IMG/VR virus record: IMGVR_UViG_3300016457_000036
Span: 7,253-71,252 of that record
DNA length: 64,000 nucleotides
Strand: one strand, 5' to 3'
Source of the DNA: a virus
Taxonomy: Duplodnaviria > Heunggongvirae > Uroviricota > Caudoviricetes
Shown here one piece after another: positions 667 to 42,294 of this stretch. The position numbers were made by a program, and so were the translations under genes. The notes below the pieces were generated by a model. It saw only the letters and a program-made list of their open reading frames with translations. It ran no database searches and had not been told where the DNA came from. Positions within the stretch are counted from its first letter, which is position 1; every line of letters begins with the position of its first letter.

Positions 667-1020
667 CTACATACATAGTGCATCGTAACGATTTAGAATA
701 GTATCGCCATCAATATCAAAACATTCAGTATGCCCATCGAACACGCTGTCGAACACGCATCTGTAATCCGCGAACTCTTGATGCATCTGAGTTTCTTTTT
801 CAAAATGATTTTCCACCTTTCTAAATCGCTTGATAGATGCGCGAGGCATGTATCTGTATACCATAAAAAATGATCGGAGTATCTGTAACATTCGGTCTAC
901 AGGATTGATACAAGTGATGCCGACTTTATACACTACTCGTTTGTCATCAAGTACGAACTTCATAACATAGAGTGTGCACTTCTCTTTATCGGGATCTCCC
1001 GACACTTTCATAAATGCCAT
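667..1020 (-). CDS. hypothetical protein (117 aa)
   Basis: minus-strand ORF, tightly packed with neighbours. Confidence 0.45.
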   Translation of the reverse strand: MAFMKVSGDPDKEKCTLYVMKFVLDDKRVVYKVGITCINPVDRMLQILRSFFMVYRYMPRASIKRFRKVENHFEKETQMHQEFADYRCVFDSVFDGHTECFDIDGDTILNRYDALCM

Positions 1021-8430: not shown

Positions 8431-8943
8431 ATGGATAATACTGAAATACTATTGTTTCTTATCAAACACACATCTCTACTTAGTAGTACTTCTAGTATGA
8501 CAGGAGCGAAAGCTACTGCCGAATTAAATCAACGCTTATGGTTAGATACTGAACTAGACATAGAAATTGCAGAGCATGAACTATATGCTTTAGACATTAT
8601 CGCTGCTCTACAACTTCGTATCTCTCAAGCTAGTAAAGCTGTGCTACAAGCAGATATTAATAAACAGCAACAAGCTGAAATAGTAAAGAAAGAAAACGAG
8701 CATGTAATGGACAAGAACAGAGTATGTCCTGCTTGTAATAAACCTTTCGTAACTACTAGTGCCCGGAAGAAATACTGTTCAATAAACTGTGGCATGATCT
8801 ACAATAAAGCTAAGAAAATAGCTGAAAGAAAAAACCGACCAATTATTAAAGATGTCTCAAGACACTACATAATGGACAGTACTCAGACTCTTACTGAAGA
8901 TGAGTTAGAACTACAACGCTATATCAGCGACCATTGTCTCTAA
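8431..8943 (+). CDS. zinc-ribbon protein (170 aa)
   Basis: AAAGGAAAA Shine-Dalgarno sequence; C-terminal CPACN...CSINC motif. Confidence 0.45.
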   Translation: MDNTEILLFLIKHTSLLSSTSSMTGAKATAELNQRLWLDTELDIEIAEHELYALDIIAALQLRISQASKAVLQADINKQQQAEIVKKENEHVMDKNRVCPACNKPFVTTSARKKYCSINCGMIYNKAKKIAERKNRPIIKDVSRHYIMDSTQTLTEDELELQRYISDHCL

Positions 8944-11552: not shown

Positions 11553-13319
11553 ATGGCAGAACAATTCAACTTTAAAGAACTAGATAAGCACCTCAGAGCC
11601 GAGTGGCTTGCTAAACGTCCTGACTTCGTACAAGCATTTATTGATAACATTCAAAACATCGCTGATACGCATATGACTGAAGCTCTAGCAGTTGACAGAT
11701 GGGCTGAGTACATCGATATTGAGCGTCAAGCACCTCATATTTATTACTATCTTGCTTCTTGTCAAGATAGTATGCCTATTCAAAATATGATCGGCGGCAT
11801 GGCTACACTTATCAATGATCATAATGAACGTGACCTACCTACAGTATGGAACACGCACCAAATCGCATCAGAGATTATCTTCGCATTGAATGGTATCTTC
11901 ACTACTGTACAGTTGACATACAATGGAAAGTATGTTGTACGTAGCCTACTACGCGATCCTGAGCTCTCTGAGACACTCATGTATCCATTACCATTAGCTG
12001 AGCCTGCTTATGCCTCACGTGCTCTTGGAGCGTATGCTTGGAATATCACTAATGATGATGCTCTGAATGTATTGAACGCTATTCCTATGACAATCATGCA
12101 GTTTCCTGAGCAGATGCCATTCATCGGTGCTAACCCATCGGACGCAGACAAGGAACTAATGGTCAAGTATGAAGTACGTAAGGCGCTACAGCCTAGCTTT
12201 AGTGGTAAACGTATCTTCTATAATTGGCACTCAGACTACAGAGGTCGTATGTCACCTGGTGCATATCACTTCAACCCGCATGGAAATGAGTATGAGAAAT
12301 CTATCATTGCCTTCGCTGAACCTGAGAAAGTATCTTGGGCAGGTGTGATGGAATACCGTAAAGCCTTAGCTCGCTGTGCAGGTCTTGGAAAAGATACTGA
12401 CATGGAGAAACTAAAGTGGTACGCACAAAACTCACTCACCAACTTCGCTGATGTAATATGGAAAGAGCCACATACTGCTGTCTCTATCCTAACTGCATTT
12501 GAGCAGATCAAGAACACAGGACGTACTAATATCCCTATTGAACTTGACTCTACTAATTCACAGTTGCAAATGGTAGCGGTACTAACCGGTGACATGCAGA
12601 CAGCACTTACTTGTAACGTCGTACCTGATGGTGATAAGATCGCTGATGCCTATGGTATCTTGGCTGAGATTATGACTAAGATCTCCGGCAAACTCTATAC
12701 TCGTCATGACGTTAAATACGCAATGATGGTAGCAGGTTATGGCGGTGGAAAAGATGTAGTAATCGCAGAGTTCGTGGACGCTATGGACAATGACTACGAT
12801 GTTGGTGAAACATACGAGACATTCCTAGCTGCTATGGAATATGTGAGCCCTGCTTCCGGTCTACTTAAAGACACATTCGACAATCTATGGAAGGACGATT
12901 GGACTGAGGTTACTTGGACTCTACCTGATGGATTTGTAGCTTGCTATAAGCCTGTTCAGACTATGACTCTAACTCTACGTCCATTCGGTATCGACATCGA
13001 GTGTCTTGCTACAGTTAATCAAGCTATCGACTTCTCTACTGCACTCTACGTGAATGTAATTCACTCAGTTGATGCATACGTAGCTCGACAGAAAGTTATC
13101 CGTGCTAAGGGTAAATCATGGTCTATTCATGACGGCTTTCCAATGAGAGCAAACTTCGTATCTACAGGTGTTCAGAACTACAAGGACATCTTAGGTGAAA
13201 TCGCAGACTCGCGCCTATTAGAGGACATCTTAACTGAGATCTCCGGATCATACGTACCTACATTTGGAAAACAATTCGGCAACGATGCAATTCAATTAGG
13301 CAACTACGCTATCTCTTAA
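11553..13319 (+). CDS. large hypothetical protein (588 aa)
   Basis: AAAGGAACC Shine-Dalgarno sequence; long uninterrupted ORF; no motif recognised. Confidence 0.6.
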   Translation: MAEQFNFKELDKHLRAEWLAKRPDFVQAFIDNIQNIADTHMTEALAVDRWAEYIDIERQAPHIYYYLASCQDSMPIQNMIGGMATLINDHNERDLPTVWNTHQIASEIIFALNGIFTTVQLTYNGKYVVRSLLRDPELSETLMYPLPLAEPAYASRALGAYAWNITNDDALNVLNAIPMTIMQFPEQMPFIGANPSDADKELMVKYEVRKALQPSFSGKRIFYNWHSDYRGRMSPGAYHFNPHGNEYEKSIIAFAEPEKVSWAGVMEYRKALARCAGLGKDTDMEKLKWYAQNSLTNFADVIWKEPHTAVSILTAFEQIKNTGRTNIPIELDSTNSQLQMVAVLTGDMQTALTCNVVPDGDKIADAYGILAEIMTKISGKLYTRHDVKYAMMVAGYGGGKDVVIAEFVDAMDNDYDVGETYETFLAAMEYVSPASGLLKDTFDNLWKDDWTEVTWTLPDGFVACYKPVQTMTLTLRPFGIDIECLATVNQAIDFSTALYVNVIHSVDAYVARQKVIRAKGKSWSIHDGFPMRANFVSTGVQNYKDILGEIADSRLLEDILTEISGSYVPTFGKQFGNDAIQLGNYAIS

Positions 13320-15059: not shown

Positions 15060-15316
15060 TGAGCACTTATCAGAAATTCTATGCCCAAGTAACACTTGCT
15101 AATAAAAGTAGCCATGTACTTAGTAGAGTGGAAGATAAGATGCTCAAAATAATTGCGGATCAAGCTGATCGCATTACTAAACTTGAACAGAATGACCACT
15201 TACATGAATTTGTACCTCACACACGTCGTACTATCCATATGGAAGGTATACACAGCGTTCGTGAAACCTACAAGTGTAAATTCTGCAATGCTACAAAGGT
15301 GGTAGATGATGGCTGA
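15059..15316 (+). CDS. hypothetical protein (85 aa)
   Basis: AAGGAG Shine-Dalgarno sequence; CKFCN motif. Confidence 0.4.
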   Translation: MSTYQKFYAQVTLANKSSHVLSRVEDKMLKIIADQADRITKLEQNDHLHEFVPHTRRTIHMEGIHSVRETYKCKFCNATKVVDDG

Positions 15317-15815
15317 TATGATTGGATTTATAATCGGATGGGGAATAGTCACCTGGCTATTCGTTAAATTCGTACAAGGTGGTATGAAACTATCCGGTGA
15401 ACTCAAAAAGAAAAAGGCTAAGGCTACACAGAAACGTAGAGCTGAAGCACAGCATGGCTTTGGAGAGATGCTCACATCATGTGAACGTGAACTCGAAGAG
15501 ATGCATGCATATAAACCTGAAGTACCCTACGATCAGTATCTTGACTACCTCGATTCACCTGAATGGAAGAAGAAACGTCTTGCTACTATCAAACGTGATA
15601 AGAACTGTTGTCAACAATGTGGAAATAAGTTTCCTAATAAGGAATTAGAGGTACATCATATTCACTATAAACGTCTTAAAAGAGAGCAACCGGAAGACCT
15701 CATTACTCTATGTGAATTCCATCACGAACTACTGCATGACTTTCATGGAGATAAAGCAGGATATTATCCTCTCTTAACCATGTCTCAACTAACTACTGCG
15801 CTAAAGGACTACTAA
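15306..15815 (+). CDS. HNH endonuclease with N-terminal transmembrane segment (169 aa)
   Basis: CCQQCG...EVHHIHY...LCEFHHELLH = HNH motif; N-term hydrophobic MADMIGFIIGWGIVTWLFV. Confidence 0.55.
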   Translation: MMADMIGFIIGWGIVTWLFVKFVQGGMKLSGELKKKKAKATQKRRAEAQHGFGEMLTSCERELEEMHAYKPEVPYDQYLDYLDSPEWKKKRLATIKRDKNCCQQCGNKFPNKELEVHHIHYKRLKREQPEDLITLCEFHHELLHDFHGDKAGYYPLLTMSQLTTALKDY

Positions 15816-20342: not shown

Positions 20343-20405
20343 TACATACGAAGATGCCTACGATAAACGCGGAGGCCGTCTACCTGAAGGAAATGAGAAG
20401 ATGAA

Positions 20406-20855
20406 ATGACTGAAATACAGCACCTAATGGGGCAGATCGAAGCTCTGAAAGAACAAGTAAAACTTTACCGCTTCGACTACGTTACCGGTTTAAAACAGCG
20501 TCACGACTTCGAGCATGATGCACGTACTAAATTTGAACAAGGCAGCTACTACCTCACTATGTATGACATAGATGGTCTTCACACAGTAAATCGTATTAAA
20601 GGCTATGATGTAGGTGATGCCCTAATCAAACGTATTGCTAACGACATTAAAATACTAGGTGGCCGCTCTTACCGTATTGGTGGTGATGAATTCATGACTA
20701 TCAACTGTGAGCGTCCTCTAACTGCAAAAGTACGTAATACTACCTACGCAACTATTTATACAGGTGATTATGATACATTCGACGAAGCACTTAAAATTCT
20801 CGACGAAGCTATCATCCGTAAAAAGATCGGCACTAACCGCAGAAAGGAAAGCTAA
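20406..20855 (+). CDS. stand-alone GGDEF-domain protein (diguanylate cyclase-like, 149 aa)
   Basis: DYVTGLKQRHDF...MYDIDGLHTVNRIKGYDVGDALIKRIA...RIGGDEFMTI matches GGDEF core motifs incl. intact GGDEF; short N-terminal coiled-coil stalk. Confidence 0.6.
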   Translation: MTEIQHLMGQIEALKEQVKLYRFDYVTGLKQRHDFEHDARTKFEQGSYYLTMYDIDGLHTVNRIKGYDVGDALIKRIANDIKILGGRSYRIGGDEFMTINCERPLTAKVRNTTYATIYTGDYDTFDEALKILDEAIIRKKIGTNRRKES

Positions 20856-21133
20856 TGCATACCAATGACATTATCGGACTTATACTTTTGGGTGGTCTTA
20901 TAATTGCAGGACTTATAGATTTTTATCTAGCACGTAAAAAATCAACTCGTGAAGAAACGATCCTAAAAACCTGTGGCTGTGTATGCTACTGTCCTCAATG
21001 TAAAGAACCTCTTAATGACCAGGCTGACTGTACTGACGAAGAATTTGTCACCTACACTTGCTCTGTTTGTGGCACAGTTTCTAAGTGGAACTTTGACATA
21101 GCACCTGTACCTATCTTAATGAAGGATTTATAA
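20855..21133 (+). CDS. membrane-anchored zinc-ribbon protein (92 aa)
   Basis: N-terminal TM helix; CGCVCYCPQC...CSVCG. Confidence 0.4.
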   Translation: MHTNDIIGLILLGGLIIAGLIDFYLARKKSTREETILKTCGCVCYCPQCKEPLNDQADCTDEEFVTYTCSVCGTVSKWNFDIAPVPILMKDL

Positions 21134-22742: not shown

Positions 22743-23129
22743 ATGGGACGTTATTATCAAGGTGATATAGAAGGCAAGTTTTGGTTCGGAGTACAAAGTA
22801 GCGATGCTGCTGACCGCTTTAATCCTACCAATAATGAGTATGCTGCAGAAGACGGAGAGATCTGTTATGAGTTTTCAAGAGAAAATGATCTTGCTGATAT
22901 AATCGAAGAACTTACAAATATCGAAGAAACTATTGGCGGTGTCGCCATGAAAAAACTTGATGATTTCTTCGACGAAACAAACGGCTATAACGATACAATC
23001 ATGAAAAAACATGGTGTACTAGATATGTGGAACGAGCATAAAACTAATTATGCTGACTATTATTTAGGCATTAAAATTCGTGACTACCTAAAAGAACATT
23101 CTTACTGTGCCTTCACAGCTGAGTGCTAA
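22743..23129 (+). CDS. hypothetical protein (128 aa)
   Basis: AAGGGACATTACATG. Confidence 0.45.
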   Translation: MGRYYQGDIEGKFWFGVQSSDAADRFNPTNNEYAAEDGEICYEFSRENDLADIIEELTNIEETIGGVAMKKLDDFFDETNGYNDTIMKKHGVLDMWNEHKTNYADYYLGIKIRDYLKEHSYCAFTAEC

Positions 23130-23130
23130 T

Positions 23131-23481
23131 ATGGTAACTCTTATTTGTGGTGGCCGTGACTTCACTTCTTACGATGCACTTGAAGAAGCTATGAAAATGC
23201 TACCTACTAAACCTACTATCCTCATTCAAGGTGGTGCTAAAGGCGCTGACTATCTTGGTAAACTATGGGCTATCTTAAATGATGTACAATACGCCGAAGT
23301 TCCTGCTATGTGGGAAAACTTCGGTAAATCTGCAGGCTTTAAACGTAATGCTGCAATGCTTTTACTAAGACCTGAATACTGCATCGCCTTACCTGGTGGT
23401 GTCGGTACTCGTATGATGATCGATCTCTGCAATAAAGCAAATGTTCCTGTATGGGAACCATATCCAAAGGAAACCACATGA
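23131..23481 (+). CDS. SLOG / DUF2493-like (YspA-type) nucleotide-binding protein (116 aa)
   Basis: LICGGRDF...ILIQGGAKGADYLGKLWA matches DUF2493 GG..D / GGA.GAD motifs. Confidence 0.5.
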   Translation: MVTLICGGRDFTSYDALEEAMKMLPTKPTILIQGGAKGADYLGKLWAILNDVQYAEVPAMWENFGKSAGFKRNAAMLLLRPEYCIALPGGVGTRMMIDLCNKANVPVWEPYPKETT

Positions 23482-29127: not shown

Positions 29128-29512
29128 CACTTGCCGTTTCAGTTTTGCAACTTGCCGTCCTAGAAAAGTTGTGTTTAAATCTGCGACAGAAGACGCTGTT
29201 ATTGAGTGTGACAAATTCGAGGAACCGCCTACTAAACATGGTTTTAAATACACAGGTCCCGGTCGTATACCTGACACACTTCTTCTTAACGTATCTCATC
29301 GTGAATATCATCGTAGAGTATTTGAAAAATGTGTACCTGAATACCTTACATACAAACTTCGTAAACTAAAAGACGTTATTGAACATTCTGTAAAAGATGG
29401 ACTACTAGTTCTTTCACCTAATGAAAACCTTCAATTACTACATCGCCTCAAAGCACTTAAAACTGTACAGGCTGAACTCGACTATATCTACTCAACAGGA
29501 AAAACTTCATGA
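29084..29512 (+). CDS. hypothetical protein (142 aa)
   Basis: ATG at 29084 inside track ORF. Confidence 0.4.
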   Translation: MKNEKTQNVPLNLCDTCRFSFATCRPRKVVFKSATEDAVIECDKFEEPPTKHGFKYTGPGRIPDTLLLNVSHREYHRRVFEKCVPEYLTYKLRKLKDVIEHSVKDGLLVLSPNENLQLLHRLKALKTVQAELDYIYSTGKTS

Positions 29513-30267
29513 AACCATTCTTTAAGTACGCAGGTATTCACTACCCTGTATTCGGCTCTGCTGTAGGGTGGGAAAACGGCCGCTATAAGTCAGAAATGTC
29601 ACGCTTAGTCGGTGGCTATGGTGATAACTACGGTAAGTGGTGGACATTCTCTTGGGGATGGAAAACACGTGTATGGAATAAAGCTAAGCCTCTTAAACAG
29701 TTTATCGTTGATGCAGTAGCCGATCACCCTGAGATGGAAATTGAATGGCGTTGGTTCGAGGACTCACATCCTGAACAAGGCGGTATGTGGGCGGTAGTTC
29801 ACGCTGAAACTAAACAGTATCTTGGAAATCTCTTAGATGCGTTCTACATGACACCACTTACACAGATCACACATGGTACAGGCTTTAACATCTCAGAGCA
29901 GAAATGGTACGGATGGTCACACCGTGCTAAATATGGCTTTGGTGTTGGTTCTACAGTCAAGAAAGGCGATGTTGCTTATAAAGCACGTAACCCACATGAA
30001 CTTGTAGAGGCCTGTCTCAGATTTTGGGGCGATGTAGACTACCCTAAAAAAGTAGAGAAAATTGAACATAACTACCTTGAAGATTTTAATAATACTACAG
30101 GTGTGATGATCACTTTCGATACTACTGAAGAACTCGTAGAAGGCGGTGTACAACAGACCGGTGAATTTATCCCGTATCCTGAAACATGGGGACGTGGTGA
30201 ATGGACTGCAGAAACTCTTGAAGATGCTCATGAAATGGCACTAGCTTTCTCAGATGGCGTATCGTGA
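29509..30267 (+). CDS. hypothetical Trp-rich protein (252 aa)
   Basis: ATGA overlap; no motif recognised. Confidence 0.5.
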   Translation: MKPFFKYAGIHYPVFGSAVGWENGRYKSEMSRLVGGYGDNYGKWWTFSWGWKTRVWNKAKPLKQFIVDAVADHPEMEIEWRWFEDSHPEQGGMWAVVHAETKQYLGNLLDAFYMTPLTQITHGTGFNISEQKWYGWSHRAKYGFGVGSTVKKGDVAYKARNPHELVEACLRFWGDVDYPKKVEKIEHNYLEDFNNTTGVMITFDTTEELVEGGVQQTGEFIPYPETWGRGEWTAETLEDAHEMALAFSDGVS

Positions 30268-30870: not shown

Positions 30871-31215
30871 ATGGAATTTATGATCGCTTGGTATCCCCTA
30901 GCTCGTTTCTTCTTCTTCGGAACTATTATCGCTATCGCAGGTTATCTACTTTATAAAAAATGGTACAAGACATCGGGCACTTTGTTTATGGCACTGTTTC
31001 TTTTCGCTGTCTTTGCTCCGGTAAAGATCGACGGTACACAATCGCACTCTGCCCATAAAGCTGAAGTAAGTGCACGTACTCAAGAGTATAGAATCGTCGA
31101 AAGTGAAAAGGTAATAGTCACCACTAAAAAACCCACATTTGAAGAACGCATGGCAGCTGAAGAAGCTCGCTCTGCCTCTGCAAACAATAAGGTCGAAAAT
31201 GAAATGCTCAAATAA
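30871..31215 (+). CDS. membrane protein (114 aa, two TM helices + charged tail)
   Basis: AAAAGGACACACATG; FFFFGTIIAIAGYLLY and LFMALFLFAVFAPV. Confidence 0.45.
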   Translation: MEFMIAWYPLARFFFFGTIIAIAGYLLYKKWYKTSGTLFMALFLFAVFAPVKIDGTQSHSAHKAEVSARTQEYRIVESEKVIVTTKKPTFEERMAAEEARSASANNKVENEMLK

Positions 31216-31378
31216 AACAGGCTTTACAATTATCGAATTAATTTTCGTAATTGTTATCTTAGGTATCTTGGCTTCTGTAGCCATTCCTGGAATAAAAAAA
31301 GCTCAAAAAAGAGAAGCCGCAGCTCAACAATCTTTTGAACAACCTGCTAAAACAGATGACGATGGAAGTACCTGGTAA
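31199..31378 (+). CDS. type IV prepilin / pseudopilin-like protein (59 aa)
   Basis: MKCSNKTG|FTIIELIFVIVILGILASVAIP = class III signal peptide (G-1, F+1, E+5) and N-terminal pilin helix. Confidence 0.55.
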   Translation: MKCSNKTGFTIIELIFVIVILGILASVAIPGIKKAQKREAAAQQSFEQPAKTDDDGSTW

Positions 31379-31587
31379 TGGAACTCTATGATGCCTTATG
31401 GATAGTTATACCTCTATGGCTATTCGTCGATGAAAGATTAGCTTTCCTTGTAGGTGTTGTTCTTTTATTCGGAGTAGGTATTACTTATCTTCCCGAACAT
31501 TCTCCATCTCAAAACTTAACTCAGATCCACGCAACAGATGTAAATACGTCTGCACCTAGTAGTGATGATACTACTGATTGGCATTAA
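31378..31587 (+). CDS. small membrane protein (69 aa, 2 TM), possible NfeD-like SPFH partner
   Basis: hydrophobic WIVIPLWLFV / LVGVVLLFGVGITYL; immediately upstream of SPFH gene. Confidence 0.4.
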   Translation: MELYDALWIVIPLWLFVDERLAFLVGVVLLFGVGITYLPEHSPSQNLTQIHATDVNTSAPSSDDTTDWH

Positions 31588-31588
31588 C

Positions 31589-32461
31589 TTGAAAAAAATT
31601 CTATCTCTATTGGCTTTAGTAGCCGTAATGATGCTCAGCACAGGCTGTTCGTATGACACAGTACCACAAGGTACAAAAGGTAAGGTCTTAGACCGCTCAG
31701 GCTTCCAACCGGAAGTTTACCCACCGTCACGTGTTGATGTTGGTTTACACGGTAACTTGGTACTTGTTGAAACGATCACACATACTGTAAACGAAACTGT
31801 TACAGTACGTATGAAAGACGATATGAACCTTGTTGCACAGGTACGTTTTAAATTACGTATGGGTGAGAAACCAAAATCTCTTAATCTTGTATTCAATGAT
31901 ATTAGACCTGGTGAAGGTGGTATTATTACTCTGAAACAGATCTATGAAGTACACGGTAAGATGCTTGTTAACAAGATCGCACGTGAAGTACTTTCACAGT
32001 ACAACATTGGAGATGTAAACGATAACTTTACACATATCTCTTCTGACATTTATAACAAGACTCTTGAAGCTTTCAAGCCTACACCACTTATCGTAACTGA
32101 TGTAGCACTTGGTAAACTTGACTATCCTGATGTTATTGACCGCGCTATTGAAGCAGCAGCTAAACGTGAACTTGAAATCAAACAAGCCGAAGCTGATGTT
32201 GCTGTACGTCTTACAGAACTGAAGGGTAAAGAGAAGGTCGCAGAAGGTGAATATCGTATCAAAATGCAGGAAGCGAAACGTATTCGTGACTACAATAAAA
32301 TGATCGCTAAAGGTATTACACCACAACTTCTACAACTTCGTCAGCTTGAAGTACAACAAGCGATGGTGCAAACTATCGAAAAGGGTGATGCTACCACTAT
32401 CTTTATTCCTTACGGATCTCAAGACAGCTTAGGTATGCAAACACGCATGTACAGTAAGTAG
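31589..32461 (+). CDS. SPFH (band-7/stomatin/HflC-like) domain lipoprotein (290 aa from TTG)
   Basis: TTG start gives MKKILSLLALVAVMMLSTGC lipoprotein signal; body has SPFH-like ...VALGKLDYPDVIDRAIEAAAKRELEIKQAEADVAV. Confidence 0.55.
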   Translation: MKKILSLLALVAVMMLSTGCSYDTVPQGTKGKVLDRSGFQPEVYPPSRVDVGLHGNLVLVETITHTVNETVTVRMKDDMNLVAQVRFKLRMGEKPKSLNLVFNDIRPGEGGIITLKQIYEVHGKMLVNKIAREVLSQYNIGDVNDNFTHISSDIYNKTLEAFKPTPLIVTDVALGKLDYPDVIDRAIEAAAKRELEIKQAEADVAVRLTELKGKEKVAEGEYRIKMQEAKRIRDYNKMIAKGITPQLLQLRQLEVQQAMVQTIEKGDATTIFIPYGSQDSLGMQTRMYSK

Positions 32462-32589: not shown

Positions 32590-32820
32590 ATGCCATCTAT
32601 TCATTCACAAGCAGAACGTCATCGTATCCATGAAAAGTATGATCTTACATTCAAACTTATTGATATGTATCTTACACTAGAACCTGTTCTAGCCACAGAC
32701 ACAGCACACGAACAACTACTACTGCTAGAAGATGCTTCAGAAGCTACTAAACGTCTTGGTGGACAGCTAGTATCGCGCCAGGCTGTAGCAGTATTGCTTG
32801 CACCTTACTTGGAGTTATAA
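32590..32820 (+). CDS. hypothetical protein (76 aa)
   Basis: AAAGGACTCCTATG. Confidence 0.4.
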   Translation: MPSIHSQAERHRIHEKYDLTFKLIDMYLTLEPVLATDTAHEQLLLLEDASEATKRLGGQLVSRQAVAVLLAPYLEL

Positions 32821-33221
32821 TGACTGAAATATTCCTTCTACTAGTCCTGTTTCAACTTAAACATTTCCTAGCAGATTACCCTCTGCAATTTCCGTATATG
32901 TATGAAAATAAAGGTAAAGCTACAGGATGGGTTGCGCCATTAGCTAATCATGCTTGGATACACGCTGCAATGACTTTAATCATAGGCGTATTCTTTTTAC
33001 TTGATGTAAATCCTGAGATACTAACAAGACCTGCATTTGCTATCTTATTCTCTATTACTGCAATAGACTTTACTACTCACTTCATAGTCGATAGATGGAA
33101 GGCTACACGCAAAGGTGGACCTGATACACCTCGTTTTTGGATCAACCTCGGATTAGACCAAATGGCTCATCATTTAGTTGGTATTTTCATTATCTACATT
33201 TTAATAACTCAAGGACTTTAA
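32820..33221 (+). CDS. polytopic membrane protein (133 aa)
   Basis: 3-4 hydrophobic segments. Confidence 0.45.
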   Translation: MTEIFLLLVLFQLKHFLADYPLQFPYMYENKGKATGWVAPLANHAWIHAAMTLIIGVFFLLDVNPEILTRPAFAILFSITAIDFTTHFIVDRWKATRKGGPDTPRFWINLGLDQMAHHLVGIFIIYILITQGL

Positions 33222-33971: not shown

Positions 33972-34286
33972 ATGGCAATCATTACTACTTCAATTTCCGG
34001 ACCTAAAAAAGGTATCCCACATCGCCTCAGAGCAGGTGTAGTTATTAGAACACCTGAACGCGCAGAAACAGATGGCGAGTATTATGAACGTAATTTAGGC
34101 TTCTTCAACAATAGTGCTAACGTCCCTACTACTTGCCCTAAGTGTGAAGCTGTGCTAATACAGCGTATGAAACGTCTCAGTCCTGGTAACATCACAAGTG
34201 TTACTCTAAACTGTTCTAACAAAAAATGTAAACGTGTGTATGTATCTGCATACCCGGCTAAAAAGGTAAACGCTTATGGAAACTAA
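33972..34286 (+). CDS. zinc-ribbon protein (104 aa)
   Basis: AAAGGACAAATAATG; CPKCEA...CSNKKCKRV. Confidence 0.4.
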   Translation: MAIITTSISGPKKGIPHRLRAGVVIRTPERAETDGEYYERNLGFFNNSANVPTTCPKCEAVLIQRMKRLSPGNITSVTLNCSNKKCKRVYVSAYPAKKVNAYGN

Positions 34287-35136
34287 ACAAAAAACAGTGT
34301 GTGTATATCACGGTAACTGTCTTGATGGATTTACTGCTGCATGGGTTCTACACTCAGCCTTAAATCCTTTTACTGATTTAACACTTGTAAAAGGTGCATA
34401 CACAGAAAAACTTGATGTAGATCAATTTATTGATGCTGACGTATACTTTGTAGACTTCTCAGTTAAAGCTCCTGAAATGCAAGCAATCGCTGCAGTAGCC
34501 AATAAAGTAGTTATTCTTGATCACCACGCTTCAGCAGAACGTGAACTACAAATCGTAGCTGAAAAAACCGGTAATGTTCACATCGAATTTGATATGAAAC
34601 GCTCAGGCGCTATGATTACATGGGATTATTTTTTCCCTTCTTCAGAAGCTCCTACTCTTATTAAAATCGTACAAGATCGTGATCTATGGCTATTTAAAAA
34701 TCAGTATACTAAAGCACTTACTGCTTATATGTTTACACTTGAACAGACTATTGATGTATGGAACGATCTTCTTACTGATGTAAATTCAGGTAAAGCTATT
34801 GACATGGGTCAAGTACTTCTTGATGCACATGACAAAAATGTAGCTGCTATCATCGATGGCTGTACTCGTGAAGTTTTACTCGGAGAGCATAAAGTCAATT
34901 TAACTAATGCTCATTGGATGTATGCCTCTGATATAGGTCATAAAACTATTGGTGACAACCTATTCTCAATGTCGTATTTTATCAACTCAGATGGGGTATA
35001 TTCATACTCTCTACGCGCTGATAATAATTTCGACTGCTCTGTATTAGCTGAAACTTACAGAGGTGGTGGGCATCCTAATGCTGCAGGTTTCTCATCAGTT
35101 TTACCGGTATGGACTGAGATCAACGAAGAACTGTAA
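34276..35136 (+). CDS. DHH/DHHA1 family phosphoesterase (NrnA/RecJ-like, 286 aa)
   Basis: VCVYHGNCLDGFTAAWVL (motif I), ILDHHASAE (DHH), GGGHPNAAGF (DHHA1). Confidence 0.75.
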   Translation: METKQKTVCVYHGNCLDGFTAAWVLHSALNPFTDLTLVKGAYTEKLDVDQFIDADVYFVDFSVKAPEMQAIAAVANKVVILDHHASAERELQIVAEKTGNVHIEFDMKRSGAMITWDYFFPSSEAPTLIKIVQDRDLWLFKNQYTKALTAYMFTLEQTIDVWNDLLTDVNSGKAIDMGQVLLDAHDKNVAAIIDGCTREVLLGEHKVNLTNAHWMYASDIGHKTIGDNLFSMSYFINSDGVYSYSLRADNNFDCSVLAETYRGGGHPNAAGFSSVLPVWTEINEEL

Positions 35137-35865: not shown

Positions 35866-35940
35866 CGAGGTATGGCCAAGTGGTAAGGCGGCGGCTTTTG
35901 GTGCCGTTATTCGGGGGTTCGAGTCCCTCTACCTCTACCA
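35866..35940 (+). tRNA. tRNA-Gln (anticodon TTG)
   Basis: cloverleaf: D-arm GCCAAGTGGTAAGGC, anticodon stem GCGGC/GCCGT loop TTTTGGT, T-arm GGGGG-TTCGAGT-CCCTC, CCA encoded; resembles E. coli tRNA-Gln. Confidence 0.8.
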
Positions 35941-36106
35941 TATGGTCGAAAGACCACCATGACTAAACAACAGGTAACTTCAGAAAGCTTATAGTGAGCT
36001 ACGTTGAAGATTAAAAGCATCACGTACTAATGGATCACTAATCCATGAACGCAACGTCATCCTGTACTGCATACTAAGTTACAGTAGAGAATTGTTTAGT
36101 CTAAAT

Positions 36107-36190
36107 GTAAAGTAAAAGTTGTTCGGATACAGCACCGAGACTGTAAATCTCGTCTTTAGGGGAGTGGTTCGAGTCCACTACTTTACACCA
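36107..36190 (+). tRNA. tRNA-Tyr (anticodon GTA), long D/variable region
   Basis: acceptor GTAAAGT/ACTTTAC, anticodon stem CGAGA/TCTCG loop CTGTAAA, T-arm AGTGG-TTCGAGT-CCACT, CCA encoded; D-arm fold ambiguous. Confidence 0.6.
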
Positions 36191-36195
36191 TATGT

Positions 36196-36271
36196 TACGT
36201 TATAGCTCAGTTGGTAGAGCGTTTCGCTGTTAACGAAAATGTCCCTGGTTCGAGTCCAGGTTACGTAGCCA
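36196..36271 (+). tRNA. tRNA-Asn (anticodon GTT)
   Basis: TAGCTCAGTTGGTAGAGC D-arm, TTTCG-CTGTTAA-CGAAA anticodon arm, CCTGG-TTCGAGT-CCAGG T-arm, CCA encoded. Confidence 0.85.
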
Positions 36272-36443
36272 CATGATCGCAAGATCACCAAAAAAACAGG
36301 TACTCACCTGTACAAAAAGAGTAGCTAAATTTTTGACAACTTGGAAAGACAAGTCAGTAGTCCTCTCGAAGCCGAGGAGCAAATAGTTATTTAAGGGTAG
36401 AGCCTATATGCCTAGTCATACAATGATAACTAGCTACATAAGT

Positions 36444-36519
36444 GGGGAATTAGCTCAGCTGGGAGAGCGTCTGCCTTGCACGTAGAAGGTCAGCGGTTCG
36501 ATCCCGCTATTCTCCACCA
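36444..36519 (+). tRNA. tRNA-Ala (anticodon TGC)
   Basis: GGGGAAT acceptor with G3:U70, anticodon loop CTTGCAC, T-arm AGCGG-TTCGATC-CCGCT; near-identical architecture to E. coli tRNA-Ala. Confidence 0.85.
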
Positions 36520-36725
36520 AATATGGGACGAAAGTTAGCGAATACTGTCGGAGTCATGACCTTCAGGAGTGAGTAAAAATCTCACAGATCCCACCACTTA
36601 AATATGGTCCGACTAGAAATAGATTACCATGCGCGGTAAGGGAAGCCTAAAACTTTCTCGGCCACCACCTAAATATGGTCGTTACACGATCACCATCACA
36701 CACAAATTAAATAAGGAACTACCCC

Positions 36726-37487
36726 ATGTCAAAACCTGTATTACACGAATTACTTGCCGTAGAGCAAGGACTATCTGAAACAGCTAATCGTATCACTAAA
36801 GAGACGATCAAAACACTATCTACTAAGCAATCTATCTTTGCCGGTATGAACAAAGCACACACTATCTTCGCAGAAGATCAGCAACACCTGGTTCAAGCTA
36901 CAGAGTACAAAGAAGTACAATCTACTGCAGATGAGCAGATCAACTTTCTAAACACAGAGATCGCTCGTTATTGGGACGTTACTCTACAAAAAGAAGAGGC
37001 AAACCAACGTGCTAATGCAGACATCATTATTGATGGTACTACTCTCGCTACAAATGTACCTTCTATCGTTTTACTAGGTCTTGAAAAGAAACTTACTTCT
37101 CTTCTAGCAGTTTATAACGCATTACCTACACTTGATGCTGCTACAGCTTGGGAAAGTGATCCATCTGCATCTAAAGATGGTATCTTTCGTACTAAGTATC
37201 CTGAAGAGCGTCAGCACAACGTAACTGAGCTAAAGTATATCATTGCTGCACCTGCAACTGAGCGTCATCCTGCACAAGTCAAAGAGCAAAGTATTACTGA
37301 TGTTATCGGTAAATATGTGATCACTACTTTCTCAGGTGCTATCACTTCATACGACAAAGCAGCACGTCTTGAGAAGCTTACTAAACTGATCCGTGCTGTG
37401 AAAAAAGCTCGTCAACGTGCCAACAACACAGAAGTAAACACAGATCTTACTATCGGTGCTACTATGCTAAAATACATTAACGATTAA
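36726..37487 (+). CDS. hypothetical protein (253 aa) embedded in stable-RNA island
   Basis: ATAAGGAACTACCCCATG; long clean ORF. Confidence 0.5.
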   Translation: MSKPVLHELLAVEQGLSETANRITKETIKTLSTKQSIFAGMNKAHTIFAEDQQHLVQATEYKEVQSTADEQINFLNTEIARYWDVTLQKEEANQRANADIIIDGTTLATNVPSIVLLGLEKKLTSLLAVYNALPTLDAATAWESDPSASKDGIFRTKYPEERQHNVTELKYIIAAPATERHPAQVKEQSITDVIGKYVITTFSGAITSYDKAARLEKLTKLIRAVKKARQRANNTEVNTDLTIGATMLKYIND

Positions 37488-37806
37488 TTCGTTAGTGGGT
37501 AAACGAAAGTTTGCCACATTAAGTGTATTTACAATAGCTATGTAACGTAGGCATTAAATGATAGTATATGTCTCAAAGCACAGCTAGGAAACTATCCTTG
37601 TTCATTCGGCTATGCATAGTTGTATGATCACCTGTAAATACATTTACTGTGGTAAATTTATCTTTACATTTATTCACCCTACTATACTCTAACTGAGGTG
37701 GTAGGTTATTTTCATTCTTATTTTATCACCACGATAAATTAAGTTCTGAAGACCTTTAAAAAAGAGTACACCACTCGCGCAGAACTACTTCTTTTAGTTA
37801 ACGTAC

Positions 37807-37868
37807 ATGGGTTCGAGTCCCATTCCGGCCACCATTTAATACGGCCGGGTGATGTAAGCGGCTTACAT
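37807..37868 (+). ncRNA. permuted tRNA-like element P1: 3' half (T-arm + TCCGGCC-A-CCA) followed by matching 5' acceptor GGCCGGG
   Basis: ATGGG-TTCGAGT-CCCAT T-arm, acceptor 3' strand, ACCATTTAATAC spacer, then complementary 5' strand and 8-bp palindrome ATGTAAGCGGCTTACAT. Confidence 0.4.
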
Positions 37869-37940
37869 CGTTAATATAATTTATCTTAAAAAGTAGTTAC
37901 TAGCAACTAATAGGTTGAACATCATTTAACACAAAAATTT

Positions 37941-38010
37941 GAAGGTTCGAGTCCTTCCCCGCCTACCATTACTTTACAGGCGGGTAGTCGAATTGGTTAT
38001 AGACGTTTGT
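37941..38010 (+). ncRNA. permuted tRNA-like element P2: T-arm + CCCGCCT-A-CCA, spacer, 5' half AGGCGGG-TA-GTCG...
   Basis: GAAGG-TTCGAGT-CCTTC T-arm; 5' acceptor AGGCGGG perfectly complementary 13 nt downstream followed by D-arm-like GTCGAATTGGTTATAGAC. Confidence 0.4.
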
Positions 38011-38019
38011 ATAATGCAC

Positions 38020-38052
38020 GACAGAGGAAATAAAGGTTATTATTCCTCTGTC
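38020..38052 (+). other. strong hairpin (10-bp stem GACAGAGGAA / TTCCTCTGTC, 13-nt loop)
   Basis: perfect 10-bp inverted repeat in ORF-free region. Confidence 0.6.
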
Positions 38053-38297
38053 TCAAAACATAGCTCTAGGGGTATATACGTATTGTAGTACTTAGTAGTG
38101 TGGATCACGGACTACAATCCCGATCTCGTATTTTGTCTCGTCCCGCAAGGATGTACAGACAGAGCGACAAAACGCTGCGGTGTACCCTGAGAGGTGTGTT
38201 TTAAAGCCACCACAAGATTCTGTAGTAATAGTCTCTAATGCTGTAAGTATGGCACTACTTGTAATAGTGTCAGGATCACTTACTGTATTACGTCCGA

Positions 38298-38419
38298 CAT
38301 GACGTTAAACATGACATTACTTTGTGATTAAAGTAGTTACCGAGAACGTAGACTAATAATCTACTCAGTACCGGACCGGCATGACGTTAAACATGACATT
38401 ACTTTGTGATTAAAGTAGT
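38298..38419 (+). repeat. two perfect 40-bp direct repeats (CATGACGTTAAACATGACATTACTTTGTGATTAAAGTAGT) 42 bp apart
   Basis: copies at 38298-38337 and 38380-38419; each contains ACTTT-GTGATT-AAAGT inverted repeat. Confidence 0.7.
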
Positions 38420-38736
38420 CAGTACAGACTTAAAAAACATAATCATATATTCACGATTATTTTTATTGTGACTGATAGGATAGACTATCTCCTGCTGCGG
38501 ATTCGCGGTGGGGTAACATATAAGGTAATAATTATGAGTAATCTTAAAAATGCAATCGTACAACAGTTAATAACAGAAGACGCTGCAATCTATAAAAACA
38601 ATGATAAATATATCCACATCTACGGACGAGAAGATGCAGATTGGGGTATAGATATTTACGATGGAATGGATTATAATGTTCCTTCATTTTCCTGTATAAT
38701 GGAAAAAGGCACAGCAGCTGAAGCTTTCGATTACGC

Positions 38737-38811
38737 GGGTGAGTCGTCTAACGGTTAGGGCCCGCCTCTCATAAAGGCGGTATCAGAGTTCGATTCTCTG
38801 CTTACCCACCA
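38737..38811 (+). tRNA. tRNA-Met/Ile2 (anticodon CAT), elongator-type
   Basis: acceptor GGGTGAG/CTTACCC (G1-C72 paired), anticodon arm CGCCT-CTCATAA-AGGCG, T-arm CAGAG-TTCGATT-CTCTG, CCA encoded. Confidence 0.7.
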
Positions 38812-39262
38812 TTTAGCACAGCCTAGTGCATAGAGCCTACATGGTTAAAGGCTTGAGTATATGTAAGAAATACCTATCTTAACATAACTCTTAATCTATG
38901 TACTATGGTGTGCTTTGAGGCATACACAACGAGTTCTTCTTTGATGTAACTCAGCATAAAGTTCTCAGCTCCCACCGGCCCAGTTTAATCAGCAGCGATG
39001 GCCTATAACTCAGAAATGATTAGCGAGACTCAGGTTCCTCTTTTAGGCTCCTTCCTTGTCTCGCGATTAAGCATACCTTTCATTACATTATGTGTACTGA
39101 CAGGTGTGCTTTTTTGGTAATTATGTACACATGGTGGAGATTTCTAGTAGTGGCGGAATTCAATAAAGACGCTAAATAACAGTTCCTCCGTTCAGAGTGC
39201 TGTATGAGCTAACTTGAAAATTAGCAATTCATAGGTGGAAGTCCTGTGACTACTTTATATAT

Positions 39263-39610
39263 GGGCGCAACATGGCTTCGACAGGAAATTGGTCCCACCC
39301 CGAATGATACAAGGTATGATACTACCTCAACAGATCATTAACTTAAATGTAAACAACATGAATTTTAATCCTACTGCAGAGCTTGCTGCTGCGTAGTGTG
39401 GACCGGGACAGACACATAACCAACTTGTCCCACACTTTAAGTCTTTGCCTTGTTGCAGAGCCTAGCACCGTAAGTTCACGCTAGTAACCAATTCTTACAT
39501 CCTTGTTTTACAGTTTTACGCATATTGACTGTGATAAATTGCACGTATCGTGAAGTTCGGTTAAAAAGATGATTTTTTGGACTCGGGTTCGATACCCGAT
39601 GCGTCCACCA
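39263..39610 (+). ncRNA. ssrA: tmRNA (ssrA-like transfer-messenger RNA), tag reading frame ...NFNPTAELAAA-stop
   Basis: 5' GGGCGCA-ACATGG-CTTCGAC-AGG and 3' GGAC-TCGGG-TTCGATA-CCCGA-TGCGTCC-A-CCA match tmRNA consensus; internal ORF gca gag ctt gct gct gcg tag ends 39396. Confidence 0.75.
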
Positions 39611-39762
39611 TACGCTATCCCCTTGATACTATTATGTAGTATGAATGGGGTTGCGAAGCTGCAGATGCAACCACTAAAATCTTATACGCAGCATAGTACT
39701 TCTTCATTTCTATTAAAACTATGAAGAACGCTCCCGGGTATGGTCGGCTAGGGAGAGTAGTG

Positions 39763-39785
39763 TTGACCTTTGTTTATGATATAAT
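39763..39785 (+). promoter_or_regulatory. promoter candidate: TTGACC ... extended -10 TGATATAAT
   Basis: perfect TGnTATAAT at 39777-39785; -35-like TTGACC at 39763 (short spacer). Confidence 0.4.
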
Positions 39786-39824
39786 TTTCTCAGTTCCTTT
39801 ATACATGTTAAGTATATAATTGTA

Positions 39825-40021
39825 GTTACTCCGCCTTCGGGCATCACATTTGGGATATGACTTACTGCAATTTCTAACTTAGCATTTATAAGGGAATATG
39901 TACACAGTTACTCCTGCTGTTTTCAGCAATTCACTGCTAATGATTTTACTGTGCACACTCTCCCTGTTAGTCTTCAATAAACTCAAGTTTATGGTATTGG
40001 TTACTCCGCCTTCGGGCACCA
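39825..40021 (+). repeat. repeated leader element GTTACTCCGCCTTCGGGCAYCA (x2; GTTACTCC x3) each preceded by AT-rich -10-like box
   Basis: copies at 39825-39846 and 40000-40021, third GTTACTCC at 39907; contain C-UUCG-G tetraloop. Confidence 0.5.
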
Positions 40022-40098
40022 AACTTCTAATTTGATCTTACCTCTACTACTCACTTGAGTTTATTGAACACTATCACTAAAACTAAAAGGAAATCCCC

Positions 40099-42294
40099 AT
40101 GAAAAACTTAGCACTACAACGCCTAATCTATGGCATGACAAACACTATCGTAATCGAGTCTACCGGTCCTAAAGAAGTCGTAACTGAAATCGAGGCTGTA
40201 CGTTCTAGCATGGCTATCGAGGGCTTTATCTTCCGTCCGGGTTTCGCTAACACTACTGAACTAACTGACTATACAGAAGCTGATTGGGCTGCTATGTATG
40301 CACAATATTCTTTAACATATGGATGGAGTACACTTTACACAGCCCGTACAGGTAATAATCCTGTTACTGTACTTGATGCATACTTTACTGATCTTGGCAA
40401 TATCTTTTCTCCGCTTGAAGTAGCGCCTAAAGCGTATTATGTGGCTGAGCCTGTTTTCTATGAAAAAGTATTGACTGACATCGCTGAGTCAAAAATTGTA
40501 TTACGTACACATCAGATCGAGATCTTAAATCTTATGCCTATCGAAATACTTGCTAAAATTTATGAGAATGTCGTATTCACCATCATAGAAACTCGTATTC
40601 TGTTTCTAAAACGTCTCATTACTGAAGGTAAAGAAATCGCTGCATTTACTACACCTGAAGAGATTGTAAAATTCGTCATAGCTGTCTTTCCTAAGAACAC
40701 AGAGCCATACACAGGACAAGTCACTAACGACATATTAAAAGCAATCGAAGTAAAAATTCCTACATCTATGCGTAAAGTTATTGTTCGCTCTATTCAAAAG
40801 ATGAGCTACTTTAAAGCTATCAGAGGCATGAAGAAAAACAAAAACTTTTGGAAACGTCTATTTAAGCAACTTGCATGGCAATCCGAAGAAAAAATGATCG
40901 CTACTGCTCGCTTTCAAAACTACCTTGATATTAAAGGTACTGTCTTCAATGAGACTATCATCACACCTCGCTCAGACATCGAACAGTATCGTCGTGAAGG
41001 TAACTTAGAAACTGCTTTTATTGTTGAGATGAAAAACACAGGCGGGATGTTACGAAATCTTATGTCATACCTACGTTATCCGATCGGATCTACTTATGCT
41101 AAAAAAGTAAGCATGGCACCTGATGCAAAAGAACACGGTATTGCTATGTACTTTAATAAAAAAGTACAGGAAGAAGTACGTGCTACTGTCGTTCATTCTG
41201 ACATTACCAATGTCTTAGCATCTGACGAATTTATGAAGTGTCTTACTCAGGCTAACTCTAAGCTACTATGGCAAGTACTCACACTTCTACAGGACAAGAA
41301 AAACACAGTCCCTAAATCTGTTCGTGTTGTAAACGACACTAAGATCAAATACTCAAAAGCTTTACCGGGTATCGATCCTAAAATGACTGAGCTTGCTAAA
41401 AAAGCCATTAAAAAGGCTATCAAAAAAGTGAAACGTGCTGAAAATGCATCTCTTGGTAAAGTTTACATAGACAAAACACTTAAAAACTACGCTATGCAGT
41501 TCTCAGGTCGCTCAGAAACGTCAATCTCACTATCAGGTGAATACTTGTCTCCGGGAAGTAAAATTGACCTTACAGACCTTCTGAAGGGTGAAGATAAAAT
41601 CTTACGTATGGGTATTGCATGGACAGGTGCTTCATGTGATGTTGACCATGCTCTAAATATCTTCGGTATGCGTTCTATCTATTACGGTAATCCTACCTTA
41701 GCAGATACAGAAGGTCGTGTAGTTATCTCATCTTCAGGTGATATTACATCATGTAGTCCTGGTCTATTCAGTACAGAGATTATCGATATTGATGTAGATC
41801 AACTTGCTACGTCTAACGTAGAGAAGATCTTTAATTCTGCTCATATGTTTGCAGGTCCTACTTTCGATAAAATTGAATGTTATTGGTTCATGAATATCAT
41901 CGATAAAAAAGATCGTATCCTTGAAAAACGTAAAGTTGCAATCGCACTTGATGCAATGCAATATGCTATTAAGCTTCAAGAACCTACTCGTGCACAGGTA
42001 GGTTTCTCTGTCGATCTGAAAAAGAAAGAACTTGAAGTTTTAAATCTTCCATCAAAACAATCGCAGTATAATAATGCTGCTACTTGTAAAGAAGATTTTG
42101 AGAAGCTGTTAGCTGAACGTCCTAAGCAAAAATCATTGTATAAAGCAATGAAAACTGTTATCGCTAAAGATCAGCTGACTGATAATATTTTAGAAGCTGA
42201 CTTGATTATTTCTGCTGAACCTGATCAGCCTGCAGGCATTACTGTCTTGCATCCGGGCAGAGATGCAGTAGCACTACAAGAAATTATCTTTTAG
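40099..42294 (+). CDS. large hypothetical protein (731 aa)
   Basis: AAAAGGAAATCCCCATG; long clean ORF; no motif recognised. Confidence 0.6.
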   Translation: MKNLALQRLIYGMTNTIVIESTGPKEVVTEIEAVRSSMAIEGFIFRPGFANTTELTDYTEADWAAMYAQYSLTYGWSTLYTARTGNNPVTVLDAYFTDLGNIFSPLEVAPKAYYVAEPVFYEKVLTDIAESKIVLRTHQIEILNLMPIEILAKIYENVVFTIIETRILFLKRLITEGKEIAAFTTPEEIVKFVIAVFPKNTEPYTGQVTNDILKAIEVKIPTSMRKVIVRSIQKMSYFKAIRGMKKNKNFWKRLFKQLAWQSEEKMIATARFQNYLDIKGTVFNETIITPRSDIEQYRREGNLETAFIVEMKNTGGMLRNLMSYLRYPIGSTYAKKVSMAPDAKEHGIAMYFNKKVQEEVRATVVHSDITNVLASDEFMKCLTQANSKLLWQVLTLLQDKKNTVPKSVRVVNDTKIKYSKALPGIDPKMTELAKKAIKKAIKKVKRAENASLGKVYIDKTLKNYAMQFSGRSETSISLSGEYLSPGSKIDLTDLLKGEDKILRMGIAWTGASCDVDHALNIFGMRSIYYGNPTLADTEGRVVISSSGDITSCSPGLFSTEIIDIDVDQLATSNVEKIFNSAHMFAGPTFDKIECYWFMNIIDKKDRILEKRKVAIALDAMQYAIKLQEPTRAQVGFSVDLKKKELEVLNLPSKQSQYNNAATCKEDFEKLLAERPKQKSLYKAMKTVIAKDQLTDNILEADLIISAEPDQPAGITVLHPGRDAVALQEIIF

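Follow-up and report, generated by a model that had tools for sequence, protein, structure and literature searches.

The element described here is a small gene at positions 20406-20855 (+) of a 64,000-nucleotide stretch of viral DNA (the window; positions 7,253 to 71,252 of the Caudoviricetes record IMGVR_UViG_3300016457_000036 in IMG/VR). The gene encodes a 149-residue protein with a GGDEF domain, and we conclude that it is probably a minimal, constitutive diguanylate cyclase made by the phage in the infected cell. The gene and its main parts are as follows.

20406..20855 (+): mini-GGDEF diguanylate-cyclase-like open reading frame (ORF), complete, with an ATG start and 149 amino acids plus stop (ORF listing).
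20386..20400 (+): Shine-Dalgarno-like purine-rich stretch, GAAGGAAATGAGAAG, 5 nucleotides 5' of the ATG (sequence read).
20406..20468 (+): residues 1-21, N-terminal amphipathic helix and predicted coiled-coil dimerisation stalk (helix at 2-19 in the AlphaFold2 model).
20469..20846 (+): residues 22-147, miniaturised GGDEF catalytic domain without helix alpha3 and the terminal strand.

An earlier description made from the letters alone (the sequence-only reading) had proposed a phage-encoded, stand-alone GGDEF protein whose GGDEF motif is intact, with an amphipathic N-terminal helix of ~20 residues and no sensor domain, and on all of these points our analysis agrees with it. The ORF and the motif strings that it quoted are present exactly, as confirmed by the ORF listing and by direct reading of the sequence, at residues 24-35 (DYVTGLKQRHDF), 52-78 (MYDIDGLHTVNRIKGYDVGDALIKRIA) and 90-96 (RIGGDEF). 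Gene callers in public assemblies use a start at Met8, giving a protein of 142 residues (P0001); the 149-residue form is more likely, because the N-termini of the family all open with 'MT..E', as this form does, and because the Shine-Dalgarno-like stretch at 20386-20400 lies in front of it.

The assignment to the GGDEF family comes from four directions. PF00990 matched at 32.5 bits, over its gathering threshold of 23.8 (E = 8.6e-8); owing to the shortened C-terminal half of the protein, the match covers 3-92 of the 161 profile positions only. A phmmer search of the PDB returned diguanylate cyclases as its only matches. An AlphaFold2 model of the 149-residue protein, built on nine family sequences (mean predicted local distance difference test score, pLDDT, 81.7; predicted template-modelling score, pTM, 0.72), shows a GGDEF fold with a helix in front of it at the N-terminus (residues 2-19). 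When this model was compared with the PDB using Foldseek, all 50 of the 50 listed matches were GGDEF proteins, the best being constructs of a stalk and a GGDEF domain (SadC residues 300-487, PadC and GCN4-WspR), with DgcB also among the best. Because Pfam, phmmer, the predicted fold and Foldseek all agree, the protein is a GGDEF protein; an mCpol, Cas10-palm or adenylyl-cyclase-type identity is ruled out, as the sequence and structure matches are all to GGDEF proteins. No sensor domain is present in the 149 residues. PHROGs gave matches to long multidomain GGDEF families of unknown function only, with no short-form family; no near-identical DNA was found in deposited phages, and tblastn with the window protein gave weak partial matches only.

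The catalytic domain is markedly shortened, a feature common to the clade of small GGDEF proteins to which it belongs. In the AlphaFold2 model the stalk helix (2-19) is followed by helices at 29-45, 58-65, 67-84 and 125-142 and strands at 49-55, 87-90, 95-100 and 112-118; the GGDEF hairpin (87-100) has no helix after it, and there is no terminal strand. Built from 82 relatives, a profile matches DgcR (6zxm; E = 6e-19) from end to end and is interrupted once only: ~22 residues are missing immediately behind the GGDEF strand, at the position of DgcR alpha3. In this alignment the C-terminal 'vdkkliekK' lies over DgcR 'ADknLYeAK'. From F96 to K140 there are 43 residues (clade median 45); the equivalent PleD spacing, which we take to run from F372 to K442, is 69, consistent with the alignment of PleD to the same profile, which stops at residue 442. 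The distance from the GGDEF motif to the catalytic Lys is thus ~25 residues shorter than in canonical cyclases, and of the full beta-alpha-alpha-beta-beta-alpha-beta-alpha-beta palm fold both alpha3 and the last strand are absent. The sequence-only reading was right about the GGDEF identity and overlooked the loss of alpha3, the missing RxxD inhibitory site and the apparently virus-restricted clade.

Despite this shortening the active site can be followed residue by residue. Conservation was counted over 95 clade members, which are ~25-50% identical (mean column identity ~25%); motif variants and the RxxD site were counted over 92 members.

20499..20501 (+): Arg32 codon, kept in 88/95; equivalent of the DxLTGLxNR Arg, with predicted cross-dimer guanine stacking.
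20565..20567 (+): Asp54 codon, kept in 93/95; predicted Mg2+ ligand closing beta1, aligned with the leading Asp of 'DiD' in solved cyclases.
20589..20618 (+): Asn62 to Asp71, kept in 94/95 and 91/95; predicted guanine readers.
20673..20693 (+): RIGGDEF active-site hairpin, Arg90-Phe96; Glu95 is the predicted general base.
20802..20843 (+): C-terminal helix motif D133...K140...R145 R146, with the predicted phosphate-binding Lys/Arg; equivalent of 'AD.ALY.AK..GRN'.

Fourteen positions, T27, R32, D34, D54, L58, N62, G66, G70, D71, G93, D94, E95, F96 and K140, are conserved at 90% or more. K140 is invariant (95/95), G93, D94, E95 and F96 are each kept in 92-94 of the 95, R90 is kept in 83 (87%) and D133 in 82. 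Arg32 aligns with the first Arg of 'NRR' in DgcR, PA0861 and DgcZ, and the D133-R146 helix aligns with DgcR 'kiADknLYeAKssG'. We take Asp54 to be the equivalent of PleD D327, Asn62 and Asp71 to be those of PleD N335 and D344, and the phosphate-binding Lys and Arg of the C-terminal helix to be those of PleD K442 and R446. The metal-binding 'DID' of the sequence-only reading stands for its first Asp, D54; the second is Asn in 59/95, and D54 alone is conserved. A further departure of the clade is Tyr67, which takes the place of the 'GH' His.

This pattern bears directly on the idea that the gene is a decaying, functionless remnant of a captured host GGDEF gene. The domain is shortened relative to cellular GGDEFs, and a homologue on a viral contig (L011, 1704-2153) is split into two ORFs by a frameshift or assembly error, both of which would suit decay; set against them are conservation over the full length in ~100 clusters (50% identity) that is strongest at the catalytic residues, a single truncation common to the whole clade, and the occurrence of the identical protein on at least seven contigs from different samples. 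Decay is barely credible on this evidence, and we regard it as effectively refuted by the conservation pattern.

The residues that set substrate specificity point to GTP. In GGDEF enzymes the fourth residue of the GGDEF motif (Glu) is the cross-dimer general base, a conserved Arg stacks on the guanine of the dimer partner, and Asp or Ser at the Watson-Crick position sets GTP or promiscuous purine use; S-to-D mutants of Hypr enzymes turn into pure diguanylate cyclases (PMC6456294). Because Asp71 and Arg32 match the canonical and not the Hypr markers, this protein and its clade appear to be canonical GTP-specific cyclases, with cyclic di-GMP (c-di-GMP) as the predicted product. The sequence-only reading had raised a Hypr-type or other cyclic dinucleotide, an idea that fails at both specificity positions, and we reject a Hypr (cyclic GMP-AMP, cGAMP) identity: the Watson-Crick residue is Asp71 (91/95), not Ser, and the cross-dimer residue is Arg32 (88/95), not Tyr.

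The N-terminal helix has the features of a dimerisation stalk. Its heptad pattern is conserved in the clade, with a/d positions I4, L7, I11, L14, V18 and Y21 hydrophobic in 76-99% of the 95 members and the flanking positions charged or polar in 57-96%, and the helix continues directly into the DxLTGL motif, an arrangement also seen in WspR, PadC and DgcB. One metagenomic relative of 325 residues (P0042) is a tandem fusion of two full mini modules (residues 7-144 and 184-313), each with a GGDEF motif and catalytic Lys; it is in effect a covalent dimer and fits a dimeric working unit. The heptad stalk and this fusion together support a homodimer that would juxtapose two GTP-loaded half sites. 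The RxxD allosteric inhibitory site (I-site), five residues upstream of GGDEF, is common but not universal in diguanylate cyclases; it is absent here, where the sequence reads 'ILGGRSYRI', and is present in 0/92 clade members. These features suggest a dimeric cyclase that is constitutive and free of feedback.

Diguanylate cyclases are slow enzymes, and GTP is also required by the phage, for its RNA polymerase and for replication; both count against the idea that the main effect is metabolic, a drain of GTP (2 GTP to c-di-GMP plus two pyrophosphates) that would hold back host translation, change (p)ppGpp metabolism or stop division, with signalling incidental. The lack of an I-site and a sensor would make unrestrained GTP turnover possible, and YfiN-type cyclases have been tied to division arrest (PMC8085984, discussion), but nothing in our data specifically favours a GTP drain, which we consider highly improbable.

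The clade itself was delimited by sequence searches of increasing depth. A word-indexed search found seven relatives only, 40-49% identical and all of 146-160 residues. An exhaustive hmmsearch over 1.84 billion cluster representatives gave 21 matches below 1e-30 and 2,230 below 1e-10; among the best 150 of these, ~100 (clusters at 50% identity) are short stand-alone proteins of ~105-230 residues that align over the whole profile, and multidomain cellular GGDEFs align to ~positions 18-100 only. Taken together, such proteins of 145-190 residues make up ~100 sequence clusters. Every genomic context retrieved for clade members is phage-like. The phage of the window itself occurs on contigs of up to ~120 kilobases (kb), seven full-length matches come from IMG/VR viral contigs that reach 100 kb (searched with a nine-sequence alignment), one member (P0008) adjoins T5orf172, HNH, PIN and PhoH genes, and a distant member (P0036) sits amid type II topoisomerase subunits, a DNA ligase and a CCA-adding-type enzyme. 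A scan of 185,579 bacterial and archaeal species, one genome each, found no short or close relative; its matches were canonical cellular GGDEFs, ~25-44% identical and mostly over the N-terminal half, and because it was seeded by two short peptide patterns it speaks only for the close subfamily of the window protein. We conclude that the short clade is apparently virus-restricted.

Across the 11 loci that we compared, the GGDEF gene is the sole gene common to all, and no conserved partner gene (PilZ, effector or phosphodiesterase) lies beside it in any of them. The GGDEF protein has no dedicated partner and presumably has its targets in the host. The only recurrent neighbour, in 5 of the 11 loci, is a T5orf172-type gene, GIY-YIG-like and probably mobile, which lies just downstream of the GGDEF gene on contigs L010, L011 and L012 and has a homologue in the window at 667-1020 (-).

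Directly downstream of the GGDEF gene in the window lies one further small ORF.

20855..21133 (+): 92-residue ORF, its ATG overlapping the stop codon of the GGDEF gene (TAATG), with a single predicted transmembrane helix and, after it, CxxC...CxxC.

This ORF is apparently translationally coupled to the GGDEF gene through the TAATG overlap. It has no Pfam or PADLOC match, and no homologue at the other 10 mini-GGDEF loci compared. A scan for promoters and terminators near the GGDEF gene found no enrichment of sigma-70-like promoters or of terminators over shuffled sequence, and the gene therefore probably belongs to a long polycistronic unit on the + strand.

The window is a dense phage genome segment with nearly all genes on the + strand. 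It encodes an N4-like single-subunit RNA polymerase of 588 residues at 11553-13319 (+) (phrog_2051, E = 3e-44; the Pfam RNA_pol match is partial), and, at 45-63 kb, a PolA exonuclease and polymerase, a primase-like protein, two superfamily 1 helicases and a PD-(D/E)XK nuclease. Six tRNAs (Gln, Tyr, Asn, Ala, Met and Leu) lie at 35866-42491, and RNA polymerase, PolA, helicases and tRNAs are all on one strand. Within the tRNA cluster is a transfer-messenger-RNA-like gene at 39263-39610 (+) (RF00023, 56.2 bits with a gathering threshold of 47; ARAGORN tag VNNMNFNPTAELAAA). The annotated parts of the window show neither an integrase nor a repressor. The GGDEF gene sits between the RNA polymerase and the replication genes, among many consecutive small ORFs of unknown function; this gene order makes early or middle expression plausible. 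The nearest cultured relatives are Alteromonas podophages (primase 36-38% identical), the closest of which have genomes of ~70-104 kb, and Vibrio phages (DUF7873 50%); this similarity suggests a marine gammaproteobacterial host. Marine gammaproteobacteria have extensive c-di-GMP signalling.

Several other genes of the region may act on host surfaces or nucleotide signals. A 59-residue ORF at 31199-31378 (+) has a textbook type IV prepilin N-terminus (MKCSNKTG|FTIIELIFVIVILGILA...) and almost no globular domain; such a mini-pilin might poison assembly of type IV pili or type II secretion systems, with superinfection exclusion as a possible outcome, and no equivalent was found at the other mini-GGDEF loci. 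Nine kb downstream of the GGDEF gene, a 252-residue protein at 29509-30267 (+) matches PF25188, the Tad6 type I Thoeris inhibitor (E = 4e-25, C-terminal part of the profile), and is likely an anti-Thoeris gene product; Tad3-6 are reported to bind ThsB directly (PMC13402655). A 124-residue protein at 23107-23481 (+) belongs to the YspA/YAcAr SLOG family (Pfam E = 6e-11), and the YAcAr SLOG domains of jumbo phages are predicted to use NAD+ or to make ADP-ribose-derived signals (PMC7824862). A 286-residue protein at 34276-35136 (+) resembles DHH/DHHA1 phosphoesterases; its Pfam scores are marginal and its single PDB match is weak. Cyclic-dinucleotide, pGpG and nanoRNA phosphodiesterases belong to this superfamily, and the protein could degrade nucleotide signals. 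As a c-di-GMP or pGpG phosphodiesterase partner of the GGDEF protein it has marginal matches only, lies 13 kb away and has no established link. The region also encodes an SPFH/Band-7 protein at 31562-32461 (+), a DUF3307 protein at 32820-33221 (+), whose homologue is directly downstream of the mini-GGDEF gene in L010 and L012 and which is 12 kb off in the window, and, in an accessory region, two HNH homing-endonuclease-like genes at 8431-8943 and 15306-15815 (+) (PHROGs, E to 5e-13).

The Tad6 homologue, the YAcAr SLOG gene and the DHH/DHHA1 gene could be read as favouring some other nucleotide signal (3',3'-cGAMP, c-di-AMP or perhaps a linear molecule) that interferes with cyclic-nucleotide immunity. 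Minimal palm cyclases with products other than c-di-GMP do exist, as the Panoptes mCpol OptS makes 2',3'-c-di-AMP (PMC12657218), and the altered C-terminal half together with a His at position 59 could shift the chemistry. The specificity residues are nevertheless those of GTP-specific enzymes, Asp71 being the very residue whose introduction makes Hypr enzymes pure diguanylate cyclases (PMC6456294), PADLOC returned no match, and the loci hold no conserved effector or partner gene, so that we consider another signal distinctly unlikely. A comparably slim possibility is that this is the smallest natural GGDEF cyclase, confined to viruses and used for counter-defence, not for control of motility or biofilm: a flood of cyclic dinucleotide would jam or pre-empt immune sensors. 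It could replace signals removed by sponges, an 'anti-anti-anti-defence' as anticipated for Panoptes-like guards, and the cyclase would then act alongside the Tad6, SLOG and DHH genes of the same phage region.

As a constitutive diguanylate cyclase, the reading we prefer, the protein would work as follows. Two copies would pair through the N-terminal coiled-coil (residues 2-21), placing their half active sites face to face, each with one GTP-Mg2+. Asp54 and the Asp94/Glu95 hairpin would hold the metal, Asn62 and Asp71 would read the guanine, Lys140 and Arg145 would hold the phosphates at the beta and gamma positions, and Arg32 would stack on the guanine of the partner subunit; Glu95 would deprotonate the 3'-OH of the partner's substrate, and the product would be 3',3'-c-di-GMP. 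The shortened domain is presumably active. Because the protein has neither a sensor domain nor an RxxD inhibitory site, output would be set by expression level alone, with no limit from product feedback. The resulting surge of c-di-GMP would act on host c-di-GMP effectors, turning flagellar motility off and changing pili and exopolysaccharide. The benefit would most plausibly be to limit superinfection by competing phages or to hold the infected cell in place. The sequence-only reading had likewise suggested a constitutive enzyme from an early region of a virulent phage, with receptor down-regulation, an altered biofilm state or interference with defence signalling as possible benefits. Published work shows that other phages exploit c-di-GMP signalling. 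A Pbunavirus peptide, YIP, activates host YfiN, with c-di-GMP and biofilm going up and motility down, and superinfection exclusion has been put forward as its benefit (PMC8085984); c-di-GMP induces PlzR, by which type IV pilus assembly and pilus-dependent phage adsorption are blocked (PMC11461919); and phage N4 needs a surface glycan under c-di-GMP control to infect E. coli (PMC8669472).

A number of observations weigh against an active phage cyclase. The NCBIfam GGDEF model TIGR00254 scored 30.2 bits, under its cut-off of 37.4, a shortfall due to the shortened C-terminal half; the AlphaFold2 model has low confidence at the hinge between stalk and domain (residues 17-24); and the exact GGDEF motif is found in 69/92 clade members, the remaining quarter or so being of xGDEF type (SGDEF, AGDEF, TGDEF and others). 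The usual Lys of 'DxDxFK', presumably the equivalent of PleD K332, is replaced by His59 in 78/95. The palm core has two helices, of which alpha3 is one, and we know of no solved active cyclase this short; with alpha3 and the last strand lost, activity is therefore not guaranteed. Beyond the enzyme itself, the benefit to the phage is speculative, the host is read from protein similarity of 36-50% by itself, and the time of expression from gene order by itself.

The lost alpha3 and terminal strand, the Lys-to-His change and the motif variants in ~25% of the clade would also suit a catalytically dead or weak GGDEF protein that acts by binding, either as a decoy for GTP or c-di-GMP or as a dominant-negative that forms heterodimers with host cyclases through the stalk or the GGDEF face and thereby lowers c-di-GMP. 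Such a binder would need no metal ligand, guanine readers, Glu95, Lys140 or Arg32, yet these are 87-100% kept across ~100 divergent clusters; c-di-GMP receptor GGDEFs use the RxxD site, which no clade member has; and the tandem fusion P0042 points to homodimers. A role by binding is unlikely, and an active, if miniaturised, diguanylate cyclase is the reading that we retain.

If active, the protein would be the most compact diguanylate cyclase known, with ~125 catalytic residues and a 20-residue zipper, and alpha3 and the I-site would be dispensable for catalysis, a finding of use in enzyme engineering; the protein could also serve as a small constitutive source of c-di-GMP. It would further mean that diverse large lytic phages take over the main lifestyle messenger of the host directly, with a cyclase of their own, a route that complements the indirect one of YIP. 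This would offer a handle on why phages want high c-di-GMP, whether for superinfection exclusion, host immobilisation or receptor control. The value of the present work lies in the definition of the clade and in the tests that it makes possible.

Phage GGDEF genes had been annotated earlier, so the idea of a phage cyclase is not itself new; what the present analysis adds is a compact, I-site-free, alpha3-less and apparently virus-restricted clade. In the literature we found no biochemically characterised phage-encoded diguanylate cyclase. Stand-alone phage GGDEF proteins of ~150 residues annotated as diguanylate cyclases include gp42 (152 residues) of the Bordetella Vojvodinavirus phages MW2, CN1, CN2, FP1 and LK3, proteins of the Pseudomonas phages PSA20 and Psa21, and gp350 of Bacillus phage G; a few uncultured Caudovirales proteins carry the annotation too. 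LK3 and MW2 belong to one genus; LK3 is reportedly temperate, with ~64% G+C in its genome, and its lysogens are hyper-biofilm formers, loosely associated with the GGDEF gene (PMC8471281). MW2 gp42 represents a different subfamily: hhalign covers gp42 residues 17-97 only, at 27% identity, with the C-terminal halves unaligned, and gp42 has an AGDEF motif, an almost deleted alpha1, a short alpha3 that is kept and no heptad stalk. With no full-length similarity, and with these phages missed by tblastn, we reject membership of the Vojvodinavirus/Yuavirus type.

Panoptes OptS, an mCpol protein, is likewise a minimal stand-alone palm cyclase of similar size and is constitutively active; however, mCpol is a host defence component paired with OptE, is nearly without a GGDEF motif and makes 2',3'-c-di-AMP (PMC12657218). 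That system is recognised by a Cas10-like palm beside a 2TM-beta OptE effector in a bacterial genome, and we reject membership here, where the GGDEF motif is intact, no effector gene is linked and the gene is phage-borne. Hypr GGDEFs (GacA, Bd0367) share the GGDEF fold and the GGDEF, not GGEEF, motif; in them the Watson-Crick position is occupied by Ser and the cross-dimer position usually by Tyr, Ser, Ala or Gln, in contrast to the Asp and Arg of the mini-GGDEF clade. With YIP the predicted outcome is the same, a lytic phage raising host c-di-GMP so that motility falls and biofilm rises, but YIP is a small peptide that acts indirectly through host YfiN and has no sequence kinship, whereas a mini-GGDEF phage would bring the enzyme itself. 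The closest likeness is to the canonical stalk-GGDEFs (WspR and GCN4-WspR, 3bre/3i5c; DgcB, 6ttr; SadC, 4wxo; PadC, 5llw; SiaD, 7e6g; PleD, 1w25), which share the fold core, the active-site residues and a coiled-coil helix that runs directly into DxLTGL. Relative to these, the mini-GGDEF protein is without a sensor or receiver domain, alpha3, the last strand and RxxD, has His for the 'FK' Lys, and is carried by phages instead of cells.

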